Assembly (NCBI GenBank): GCA_041665625.1
Contig: JBAYIK010000001.1
Span: 134,587-194,340 of the forward strand
Length of the DNA stretch: 59,754 nt
Reading direction: 5' to 3'
From: Minisyncoccota bacterium
GTDB taxonomy: Bacteria; Patescibacteriota; Minisyncoccia; Phycocordibacterales; XYD1-FULL-46-19
Shown here: positions 30,485-49,013 of the stretch, in pieces
How positions within the stretch are numbered: position 1 is the first letter of the stretch
Layout of the letters: each line of letters starts with the position of its first letter
Program-made: the position numbers and the translations under genes
The notes under the pieces: generated by a model
What the model saw: the letters and a program-made list of their open reading frames with translations, nothing else
The model's database searches: none
What the model was told of the DNA's origin: nothing

Positions 30485-30522
30485 TAGTCTGAGAGGCAAT
30501 TCTGTGCTATTCTAGAACGAAT

Positions 30523-30637
30523 ATGGATCCCGTTAGAAGTTTTACTATCTAAGGGTATGAGTATTAACTTTACGGTTATAGATAAAAATAAAAGGTCTGA
30601 AATTATGTATAAATTAATGAACTTCTAACGGGATGGA
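30523..30637 (+). repeat. long palindromic element abutting the pyrD start codon (family 3, copy 1)
   Basis: ATGGATCCCGTTAGAAG ... CTTCTAACGGGATGGA; 13-bp arms about 80 nt apart; 3' arm ends at position -1 of ATG 30633. Confidence 0.8.
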
Positions 30638-31859
30638 GGCTTGGACTAAACTTAGAAACGATGTAATTGGTTGGAATTACCGGAACATCCTTAAGCCAAT
30701 ACTCTTCAAATTTGATCCTGAAGATATACACGATTTATTCGTTAAGGTCGGGAATTTTCTCGGCCGGGCCTCTCTTCCCCGTTATTTAACTGGGGTTCTT
30801 TTTGATTATGAGAATCCAGCACTCGAACAGGAAATTCTGGGCATCAAATTCAAGAACCCGATTGGGCTCTCGGCGGGCTTCGATAAGAACGCAAAATTAA
30901 CTCAGATTATCTCGAAGGTCGGTTTTGGCTTCACCGAGATTGGTTCGGTGACCGGCCGTCCCTGCAAGGGTAACGAGGGGCGACACTTGTGGCGCTTGCC
31001 TAAATCCGAGAGTTTGATTGTTTATTATGGTCTGACGAATGATGGGGCAGAAAATATTGCTAATAGGCTGGGGGCTACCGAGATTGGATCTGGCTACGCG
31101 AGATCCAATCGCTTCCGCCCCCAGGGCAACTTCGTTCTAGGCGTCAGCCTTGCCAAAACCAACGACCGCGAAACAACGACGACCGAAGCGGGGATTGAAG
31201 ATTATATCAAAGCCTATGAAGCCTTCCTTAAAACTGAGGTGGGAGATTATTTTACCATCAATATCAGTTGTCCCAACACCTTCGGTGGCGAACCTTTTGT
31301 CGAACCAGAACGCTTAGACTTGTTACTATTCGCTTTTGCCAAAGTTAGAGATGGCCAATCTGGCCGAGGACTAGCCTCGGTCAAAACTAGACCTCTTTTT
31401 GTTAAACTCCCGCCAGACCTAAGCGACGAGAAATTAGATGCGATTATCGAGCTAGTTAAGAAATACAAAATCAACGGCTTCGTCTCGACTAATTTAACCA
31501 AAGATAGAAATAATCCTCTTATCAAAGATAAAATTAAAGATCCCTTGCCGACAGACAAAGGGGGATTATCGGGCAAAATTGTCGAGGAATTAGCGACCAA
31601 ACAAATTGAATATATTTATAAAAAAATAAAAGATTTGCCTCAGACAGAGAGACCAATCATCATCGGTTGTGGAGGAATCTTCACCGCCGAAGATGCTTAT
31701 AACAAAATCAAAGCTGGCGCCTCACTTCTCCAGCTCATCACCGGGATGATCTTCGAAGGACCCCAAGTCATTAGCGAAATCAACCAAGGCCTTGTCGCCC
31801 TGCTCCAAAAAGATGGGTATAAAAATATAAGTGAAGCGGTAGGTAAAAATAATTTATAA
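30633..31859 (+). CDS. pyrD: dihydroorotate dehydrogenase (class 2-like) with a palindrome-encoded 19-aa insert
   Basis: PIGLSAGFDKNA, FTEIGSVT, INISCPNT, GGLSG, IIGCGGI. Confidence 0.85.
   Translation: MEAWTKLRNDVIGWNYRNILKPILFKFDPEDIHDLFVKVGNFLGRASLPRYLTGVLFDYENPALEQEILGIKFKNPIGLSAGFDKNAKLTQIISKVGFGFTEIGSVTGRPCKGNEGRHLWRLPKSESLIVYYGLTNDGAENIANRLGATEIGSGYARSNRFRPQGNFVLGVSLAKTNDRETTTTEAGIEDYIKAYEAFLKTEVGDYFTINISCPNTFGGEPFVEPERLDLLLFAFAKVRDGQSGRGLASVKTRPLFVKLPPDLSDEKLDAIIELVKKYKINGFVSTNLTKDRNNPLIKDKIKDPLPTDKGGLSGKIVEELATKQIEYIYKKIKDLPQTERPIIIGCGGIFTAEDAYNKIKAGASLLQLITGMIFEGPQVISEINQGLVALLQKDGYKNISEAVGKNNL
31068..31124 (+). repeat. GC-rich palindromic element (family 2) in frame within pyrD
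   Basis: CTGGGGGC-TACCGAG-ATTGGATCT-GGCTACGCG-AGATCCAAT-CGCTTCC-GCCCCCAG; 57 nt = 19 codons. Confidence 0.75.
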
Positions 31860-48359: not shown

Positions 48360-48374
48360 AGTTATAATGTGGAC

Positions 48375-48463
48375 ATGGATCCCGTTAGAAGCCCCATAGG
48401 CCGAGAGCGGGAGGTAATATTATGTATAGATTATTAGATATCTTAAGCTTCTAACGGGATGGA
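48375..48463 (+). repeat. long palindromic element abutting the scpB start codon (family 3, copy 2)
   Basis: ATGGATCCCGTTAGAAG ... CTTCTAACGGGATGGA; same 13-bp arms as 30523-30637; 3' arm ends at -1 of ATG 48459. Confidence 0.8.
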
Positions 48464-49013
48464 TCTAGCTGCGAAAATCGAGGCTGTTTTATTTTATCGT
48501 GCCGAACCGGTTAAAAAGACCGAGCTGGCTAAATTGCTGAATACTGACCAAGAAGCCCTCTTAGAGGCTATAAATGGCCTTAAAACAAGGCTAGAGGGCC
48601 AAGGCTTATGTTTGCTTGAATTAGGGGAAGAGTTAGAACTGGGGACCGCCCCAGAAGCTTCTGGCCTAATCGAACAAATGGCCAAGGAGGAATTATCCCG
48701 AGAGCTTGGCAAAGCTGCCCTCGAGACACTAACCCTTATCATCTACCAAGGACCAATTAGCCGCCCCGAAATTGACCAGGTACGCGGAGTTAACTCTAGC
48801 TTTATCTTGCGCAATTTAATGGTCCGCGGTCTAGCTGAGAGAGTCATAGATGAGAAAGACTCACGACGTTTTCTCTATAAGCCAACACTTGAACTATTAC
48901 GTCATCTTGGTTTAGAAAAAATTGAAGAGCTTCCCGAATACGAAATTGTCCAACAAGAACTAAATAAATTTTTAGAAACTAATAAAGATACAGATGGAGC
49001 CGGAATTGATTAA
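48459..49013 (+). CDS. scpB: segregation and condensation protein B
   Basis: IEAVLFYRAEPV, LETLTLIIYQGPISRPEIDQVRGV. Confidence 0.9.
   Translation: MDLAAKIEAVLFYRAEPVKKTELAKLLNTDQEALLEAINGLKTRLEGQGLCLLELGEELELGTAPEASGLIEQMAKEELSRELGKAALETLTLIIYQGPISRPEIDQVRGVNSSFILRNLMVRGLAERVIDEKDSRRFLYKPTLELLRHLGLEKIEELPEYEIVQQELNKFLETNKDTDGAGID

Follow-up and report, generated by a model that had tools for sequence, protein, structure and literature searches.

Palindromes at the start codons of pyrD and scpB

Within a 59,754-nt stretch of the genome of a Minisyncoccota bacterium (contig JBAYIK010000001.1, positions 134,587 to 194,340; hereafter the window, numbered from its first base), two genes begin at the far end of a long palindrome. 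The arrangement ATGGA-TCCCGTTAGAAG...CTTCTAACGGG-ATGGA spans 30523-30637 and, a second time, 48375-48463, and its second ATG opens the open reading frames (ORFs) for dihydroorotate dehydrogenase (pyrD, PF01180) and ScpB (scpB, PF04079), respectively. Exact copies of the 12-mer TCCCGTTAGAAG number four in the window, where they form just these two inverted pairs, and eight in the whole genome (854 kb, 17 contigs), always in inverted pairs. We regard both palindromes, with considerable confidence, as non-autonomous copies of the MITE type (miniature inverted-repeat transposable elements), belonging to a family of hairpin-ended mobile elements in Paceibacteria, in which a chain of short ORFs may relay translation into the host gene and a GIY-YIG nuclease may provide mobility. 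The features on which this reading draws are listed here by window position.

30505-30513, plus strand: native pyrD -10 region, TGCTATTCT, extended -10-like, with the hexamer TATTCT at 30508-30513, 9 nt 5′ of the old ATG
30523-30552, plus strand: ORF1 of the pyrD copy, nine codons (MDPVRSFTI*), opened by the old pyrD start codon (30523-30525) and including the left TGGA (30524-30527)
30528-30633, plus strand: element copy 1, MITE form, 106 bp, with left repeat TCCCGTTAGAAGT at 30528-30540 and right repeat ACTTCTAACGGGA at 30621-30633
30557-30628, plus strand: ORF2 of the pyrD copy, MSINFTVIDKNKRSEIMYKLMNF*, beginning 4 nt past the ORF1 stop and ending with a TAA (30626-30628) in the right repeat
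30633-31859, plus strand: pyrD, dihydroorotate dehydrogenase, 408 aa, with rebuilt start and the right TGGA at 30634-30637
48363-48368, plus strand: native scpB -10 box TATAAT, 6 nt 5′ of the old ATG, a leaderless-type promoter
48375-48437, plus strand: ORF1 of the scpB copy, 20 codons, opened by the old scpB start codon (48375-48377) and including the left TGGA (48376-48379)
48380-48459, plus strand: element copy 2, MITE form, 80 bp, with left repeat at 48380-48392 and right repeat at 48447-48459
48410-48454, plus strand: GGAGG (48410-48414), 7 nt, then ORF2 of the scpB copy, MYRLLDILSF* (48422-48454), closed by a TAA of the right repeat that lies 4 nt 5′ of the scpB ATG
48459-49013, plus strand: scpB, 184 aa, with rebuilt start and the right TGGA at 48460-48463

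Both copies are bounded by perfect 13-bp inverted repeats, and the sequence upstream of pyrD reads aatATGGA, TCCCGTTAGAAGT ... ACTTCTAACGGGA, TGGAGGCTTGG, and that upstream of scpB gacATGGA, TCCCGTTAGAAGC ... GCTTCTAACGGGA, TGGATCTAGCT. An initial annotation, made from the letters alone, had reported these ATGGA-flanked palindromes with 13-bp arms together with the nine-codon decoy ORF, and the sequence is as it described. It had also singled out a motif shared by the two loops, ATTATGTATA(A/G)ATTA; this motif is real, and is the beginning of ORF2 (M-Y-K/R-L) in each copy, not a free-standing signal. In both copies the A of the second ATGGA is the final base of the element's inverted repeat (A30633 in copy 1, A48459 in copy 2) and, at the same time, the first base of the rebuilt ATG. 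RNA fold predictions give the stem, whose last pair takes in the A of the real AUG, for a transcript with both arms (-27.9 and -34.6 kcal/mol), and an unstructured RNA for a transcript with the right arm alone.

Judged by their counterparts in related genomes, both palindromes are insertions and not leader hairpins that evolved in place, because the orthologous sites in the genus are empty at pyrD (seven genomes) and at scpB (eight). None of the seven pyrD orthologues has the element; they start ATGGA(A/G)..TGG (M-E-x-W), aligned to residue 1 of the PyrD studied here, and keep a TGCTATnnT-type -10 box 9-10 nt before ATGGA. The eight scpB orthologues, equally element-free, start at ATGGA behind a conserved TATAAT, 6-7 nt, ATG arrangement, and one of them reads ATGGATCTAGCTGCG, which is the sequence of this genome minus the element and one TGGA. 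The empty sites therefore delimit the elements as 30528-30633 and 48380-48459, each with a 4-bp TGGA duplication (30524-30527 with 30634-30637; 48376-48379 with 48460-48463). A MITE-like insertion with an ATGGA duplication had been one of two options put forward in the initial annotation, which had also proposed this comparison of orthologous loci; the insertion is borne out by the empty sites, and the duplication is corrected to TGGA, the A coming from the element. No empty-site allele was found among the assembled contigs of three public metagenome runs.

The pyrD copy is ~92% identical to a copy in another species that stands before a non-orthologous gene (L032; genome G005, contig 3, 19219), and the PyrD proteins of the two species are 73% identical. 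Such high identity of the copies suggests either that the element has recently spread or passed from one species to another, or that it is under strong constraint.

Position, duplication and orientation of copies

We surveyed the 854-kb genome and its relatives, using crude ORF calls as genes (735 in this genome) and a tolerant copy search in which stem positions 2-9 were fixed and positions 10-11 restricted to purines. A copy was scored as standing on a start codon if its last base plus TG opened an ORF of at least 60 codons. The search found 13 copies of 68-127 bp in this genome, and 13 of 13 lie exactly on start codons, the last base of the right repeat together with the duplicated TG opening an ORF of 138-816 codons. 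The host genes encode a ClpB-like AAA+ ATPase, PyrD, ScpB, ribosomal protein L9 (rplI), DnaB (dnaB), LysRS (lysS), GpmA (gpmA), GAPDH (gap), a HIT protein, methionine aminopeptidase (map), a solute-binding protein, a protease and a release factor, and for several of these proteins the Pfam profile starts at residues 1-5. Two copies with an old GTG start and one with an old TTG start now read ATG; in the two C...G-ended copies the rebuilt start is GTG. Because the rebuilt start thus follows the end of the element and not the old start, the first base of the new start codon is the element's own.

Start codons make up only 26% of the non-coding DTGRA sites in this genome (273 at starts versus 794 intergenic), which is the fraction to be expected if DTGRA were the sole target requirement and coding insertions were all lost, and 13 of 13 is therefore far from this expectation. 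The initial annotation had called for a genome-wide search for copies relative to starts and had reasoned that random placement without the flanking sequence would mark an ordinary MITE; the remaining copies are not randomly placed and carry xTGNN flanks, which speaks against an ordinary MITE.

The pattern extends to relatives. In a sample of 61 related genomes, 15 (this genome included) hold matching ends, and retrieval of all their copies gave 66 in total, 47 of which stand on a start codon that leads into at least 60 open codons. For the T...A-ended copies alone the proportion is 42 of 50 (84%), and several copies outside the start-codon class are tandem insertions on an ATG rebuilt by an earlier element. 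Across the order, copies with RTG after them, the only ones covered by this figure, occur in 83 of 301 genomes and 63 of 190 genera (~418 matches by hand count). The duplication is mostly 4 bp (TGAA 16, TGGA 12, TGAG 3, TGTA 2), with 3 bp in five ATGG/TGGC sites where it is clean, and occasionally 2 bp or 5-7 bp. TGAA and TGGA are enriched among targets, at 68% versus 30% of gene starts, and the largest subfamily (with a CGCGATCGC inner stem) shows a 17:1 orientation bias relative to the host gene.

The ends of the stem are sharply defined. In almost every one of the 66 copies it is exactly 13 bp long, with position 14 nearly always mismatched, and positions 1, 12 and 13, which the search left unconstrained, are paired in 64-65 of 66 copies and co-vary (T-A/C-G, A-T/G-C and T-A/C-G, respectively). 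The covariation speaks for recognition of intrastrand pairing or of strict two-fold symmetry.

Probable leaderless initiation in the genome

The insertions stand in a genome in which leaderless initiation seems to be a major mode. In 107 of the 735 genes a -10-like hexamer ends 6-8 nt before the start codon, over a background of ~6 per position, and Shine-Dalgarno (SD)-like tetramers form only a weak peak in the same crude gene calls. The sharpness of the -10 peak indicates that leaderless mRNAs are common in this Paceibacteria genome; by promoter spacing, scpB (TATAAT-6-ATG) would be a clear case and pyrD near-leaderless. The earlier statement that the genome has no SD sequences was roughly right: the leaderless-promoter signal is strong, but a weak SD signal remains. 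We considered the leaderless promoter as the true target of insertion and rejected it as such, because -10 boxes at leaderless spacing are not enriched at insertion sites (10 of 43, versus 15% genome-wide).

Chains of short ORFs between the old and the rebuilt start

The right repeat holds a TAA four bases 5′ of the rebuilt ATG (TAACGGGATG). In 34 of the 47 start-codon copies, read in gene orientation, an ATG-started ORF of at least five codons (typically 21-23) ends at this TAA, compared with 6 of 47 in a reverse-complement control (Wilcoxon p = 3e-7). We defined a chain as complete when the ORF of the old start reaches the TAA, or stops no more than 25 nt from the ATG of an ORF that does. 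Complete chains are present in 34/47 copies in gene orientation, versus 5/47 when reverse-complemented and ~4/47 with shuffled interiors, and the feature recurs in at least eight unrelated interiors. At pyrD the chain runs from ORF1 (30523-30552) across a 4-nt gap to ORF2 (30557-30628) and then, after CGGG (4 nt), to the pyrD ATG; in the scpB copy the 20-codon ORF1 overlaps ORF2.

These chains may act as a translational relay. With the native promoter kept upstream, the transcript would still start at the old ATG; ribosomes would initiate at the old AUG and translate one or two short element-borne ORFs, and in doing so would open the 13-bp stem in which the A of the real AUG is otherwise paired. 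Termination would follow at the TAA of the right repeat, 4 nt short of the rebuilt ATG, and the ribosomes would re-initiate on pyrD or scpB. If so, the insertion would be nearly harmless.

Full-length elements carry a GIY-YIG nuclease gene

A length-tuned pattern search of the 301 genomes from the order turned up full-length elements. In 14 genomes there is one copy each of a 275-283-bp element with TCCCGTTAGAG...CTCTAACGGGA ends, and the number of full-length copies comes to 15 together with L073, a 279-bp element (TCCCGATAGTTCT...AGAACTATCGGGA) with related TCCCGATAG ends on the ATG of a methionine aminopeptidase gene. In the 14, the sole gene is a GIY-YIG ORF of 86 aa (rarely 72-90 aa) that starts ~20 nt from the left end and whose C-terminal residues (..KRFLSLTG) are encoded by the right repeat. 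At a further locus, L024, TCCTGTTAGAGACCG...CGGTCTCTAAC ends enclose a GIY-YIG ORF, and a short copy lies immediately upstream.

Long copies, too, stand on start codons: in 13 of the 14 with the same repeats a long host ORF begins at the rebuilt ATG, and L073 also lies on a start codon. The 3′ flank of the 13 begins with TGA (TGAA, TGAG or TGAT where the duplication is recognisable), and the stop of the nuclease therefore overlaps the rebuilt ATG as ATGA, an overlap found in all 13 and in L073. A recognisable old start precedes 11 of the 15 long copies; in four of these 11 the nuclease ORF is fused to it in frame, and in five a short ORF from the old start stops 1-13 nt before the nuclease ATG. 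An ORF that begins so close to the left end and whose stop overlaps the host ATG leaves no room for a promoter or ribosome-binding site of its own, and the long-form nuclease gene appears, from this layout, to be read from the start codon of the host. The nuclease would mobilise the short copies in trans as well as the long form, probably by acting on the extruded hairpin.

A search of the PDB with the nuclease returned UPF0213 proteins as the nearest solved structures, as weak matches, and NCBIfam holds no specific model for it. Its closest counterpart in this genome is an 89-aa GIY-YIG protein (contig 5, 28948; PF01541, 62.9 bits), which is 57-70% identical to the element-borne nucleases and is encoded, without the repeats, directly upstream of a short copy. 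At this locus (contig 5, 28948-29329) the GIY-YIG gene overlaps the stop of an upstream superoxide-dismutase-like gene (TAATG) and now ends at a TAG in the left repeat of the neighbouring short copy. Exact CCCGTTAGAA ends were absent at the 30 best small GIY-YIG loci in relatives, and no conventional transposase was found between the same ends within 3 kb in this genome.

A mobile element that rebuilds start codons, and competing explanations

On our preferred explanation, each of the two copies went in directly behind the first base of a start codon, in a gene that is probably leaderless. The next four bases (TGGA at pyrD and scpB) were duplicated on insertion, and the inverted repeat, ending in A, rebuilt an ATG in front of the intact gene. 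We entertain a bolder version only tentatively, namely that the family represents a new class of DNA transposon whose autonomous form of ~280 bp would be among the smallest, whose sole protein would be a single-domain GIY-YIG nuclease, and which would home actively to first codons as a translational parasite. Its ORF would borrow the promoter and start codon of the host and return the ribosome through a stop-start overlap; if true, such a life would explain how the family lasts within the essential genes of bacteria with the most reduced genomes.

Several observations weigh against the preferred explanation. Thirteen of the 47 start-codon copies are without a complete chain, and the genes on which they stand nevertheless look intact; the duplication varies in length from 2 to 7 bp, which is odd for a transposase; and the sites show no enrichment for leaderless -10 spacing, as noted above. 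Copies within one subfamily share descent, so the counts are not counts of independent events. This genome has no full-length copy, and its four small GIY-YIG genes are without matching repeats. Finally, we know of no single-domain GIY-YIG hydrolase that joins DNA.

An ordinary MITE with a loose TGRA/TTGA preference, whose placement on start codons reflects survivorship in a 90%-coding genome and not targeting, is in our judgement unlikely, although it has the most to recommend it among the rivals. It would accommodate the enrichment of TGAA and TGGA among targets, the few copies off start codons, and the existence of other rebuilt sites, among them the 5′ base of a tRNA-Gly gene, TTGAC -35-like boxes and one TGATATAAT box. 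Survivorship predicts 26% of copies on starts, however, against 13 of 13 here and 84% overall, and it sits poorly with the 17:1 orientation bias and with second insertions that land on the ATG rebuilt by the first element. Slightly less probable again is a mobile cassette of promoter and leader, by which transcription of pyrD and scpB would start inside the loop, leaving the right arm alone in the mRNA and the old ATG irrelevant. Right-arm-only RNA is indeed predicted to be unstructured, and several copies have gene-directed TGnTATAAT-like boxes ~7 nt before the ATG of the internal ORF (contig 5, 29209; contig 3, 23727), but the two window copies show only weak boxes, the native -10 boxes are intact directly upstream of both, and full-length copies leave only ~20 nt before the nuclease ATG.

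The other option of the initial annotation, a cis-regulatory hairpin for the control of initiation, amounts to a translational device evolved by the host for pyrD and scpB, for example a sequestering stem with a decoy upstream ORF. It is true that the A of the real AUG is paired in the stem and that a short ORF comes before it; as an account of origin, however, this is highly improbable and is refuted by the empty sites, the element being absent from every one of the seven or eight congeneric orthologues. A target duplication flanks the hairpin, the same ends stand before 13 unrelated genes and, within the order, turn up in at least 83 of 301 genomes, and an Rfam scan of the pyrD copy gave no match, only chance snoRNA-like hits far below gathering scores. 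The inserted hairpin may have a side effect on expression, since in the RNA it would still hold the A of the real AUG in a pair.

Relation to known systems

Bacterial MITEs such as Correia/NEMIS of Neisseria, ERIC/IRU and RUP are multicopy elements of ~70-130 bp with terminal inverted repeats and a short target duplication; they are co-transcribed with their neighbours, form RNA hairpins, and vary in presence or absence at orthologous loci. The start-codon elements resemble them in being short and non-coding (68-127 bp), in their 13-bp terminal inverted repeats and target duplication, and in their 13 dispersed copies and empty sites. The place of the autonomous partner would be taken by the 275-283-bp elements with TCCCGTTAGAG ends, whose 86-aa GIY-YIG protein has a putative role as transposase. 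They depart from known MITEs in that the target is a start codon with a TGNN duplication, as opposed to TA or random intergenic sites; in that the last base rebuilds an ATG or GTG and the orientation is fixed relative to the gene; in the built-in stop 4 nt before the rebuilt start and the ORF chain that leads to it; and in a parent of ~280 bp that encodes a GIY-YIG nuclease and not a DDE transposase. To our knowledge, no known MITE or transposon targets and rebuilds start codons, and full-text literature searches returned no description of such elements, so the family is apparently undescribed.

The nearest parallel for the long form is offered by the Ssn nucleases, which cleave single-stranded DNA specifically beside NTS/SRM hairpin repeats (Chenal et al. 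2025, PMC11893778). The authors of that study remark on the insertion sequence (IS)-like NTS-ssnA-NTS layout and raise DNA mobility as a hypothesis only; the terms 'start codon', 'MITE' and 'Patescibacteria' appear nowhere in the text, which describes no start-codon association and no members from the candidate phyla radiation (CPR) (PMC11893778). Both systems have a single-domain GIY-YIG protein of ~90 aa (here 86-89 aa) whose gene is bracketed by hairpin-forming repeats amplified in the genome, and the stem foot TCCCG...CGGGA of the elements recalls the ATTCCC..GGGAAT of the Ssn system (PMC11893778). In contrast to Ssn, a single inverted repeat, TCCCGTTAGAG...CTCTAACGGGA, supplies both flanks of the elements as its arms, in place of two self-contained hairpins of 20-50 nt; the flanks do not match the NTS/SRM pattern ATTCCC-N8-GGGAAT; and the elements have target duplications and sit on start codons.

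With IS200/IS605, PATEs and REP/RAYT the start-codon elements share very small size, the likely recognition of hairpin DNA and a plausible single-strand mechanism. The IS200/IS605 group, however, has subterminal hairpins, no terminal inverted repeats, no duplication and a Y1 HUH transposase, and inserts 3′ of a fixed tetra- or pentanucleotide, so that the terminal repeats, duplication and GIY-YIG protein rule out an IS200/IS605-type identity. Like Rickettsia palindromic elements, these are selfish palindromes tolerated in essential genes of reduced genomes with gene function kept; the Rickettsia elements lie in frame within the coding sequence and are translated, whereas the start-codon elements stand at codon 1 and leave the protein unchanged.

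Other identities were considered and set aside. Integron attC sites need RYYYAAC ... GTTRRRY, and here the order is inverse (GTTAGAA ... TTCTAAC); the hosts, moreover, are single-copy housekeeping genes and not cassettes. A conserved cis-regulatory leader RNA, riboswitch or attenuator is contradicted by the absence of conservation at congeneric orthologous loci. Translational bypass, with the matched ATGGA pair as take-off and landing sites, does not apply, the second ATG being the normal N-terminus. A 38-bp in-frame palindrome elsewhere in this genome has unrelated arms and belongs to a different family.

If the start-codon reading holds, a mobile element selects start codons for its insertion and mends the signal thereby split, a class of insertion site not described before, and it shows a route by which selfish DNA can survive in genomes of 0.5-1 Mb with almost no spare DNA. 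For CPR bacteria, in which the signals for translation have barely been studied, the copies would then amount to a natural experiment on leaderless initiation and termination-reinitiation, and the long form would offer a testable link between Ssn-type GIY-YIG single-strand nucleases and DNA mobility. For annotation, gene callers may choose the decoy ATG or miss the elements, copies of which are carried by about a quarter of the sampled genomes of the order. A 13-bp hairpin foot with an 86-aa protein would also make an unusually compact site-directed DNA tool.

Nested copies and other rebuilt sites

Tandem or nested insertions, with the second element on a rebuilt ATG or TTGA, occur at L049 (genome G020), L035 (G024), L003, L021 and L023 (G049) and L024 (G039). 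Genome G024 holds a set of copies (L014, L034, L035, L037, L040 and L041), mostly C...G-ended with L034 T...A-ended, that duplicate TTGA, mostly with a C after it (TTGAC, -35-like), and some of them have a -10-like box ~17 nt downstream. In one copy, among this set and L004 (G039), the duplicated bases are TGATA, part of a promoter that reads TGATATAAT-6 nt-ATG. It seems that promoter boxes, too, are rebuilt.

Two loci outside the window involve tRNA genes. On contig 4 (77562-77593), a minimal hairpin of 32 bp, CCCCGTTAGAGGCTCGGAAGCCTCTAACGGGG, shares the stem foot of the elements and is flanked by a CGGG duplication, and its last G is base 1 of tRNA-Gly(TCC) (aragorn, 77593-77664), so that the 5′ end of the tRNA is rebuilt the way start codons are. 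On contig 6 (2937-3090), the old ATG of the copy-bearing release-factor gene lies 4 nt past the 3′ end of tRNA-Thr(CGT), and the release-factor mRNA may be near-leaderless through tRNA processing. A small GIY-YIG gene on contig 3 (~83050-83360) lies within an 11-bp inverted repeat, AATCCCTTTAT/ATAAAGGGATT, beside tRNA-Ile(TAT), and may represent a second, related type of element.
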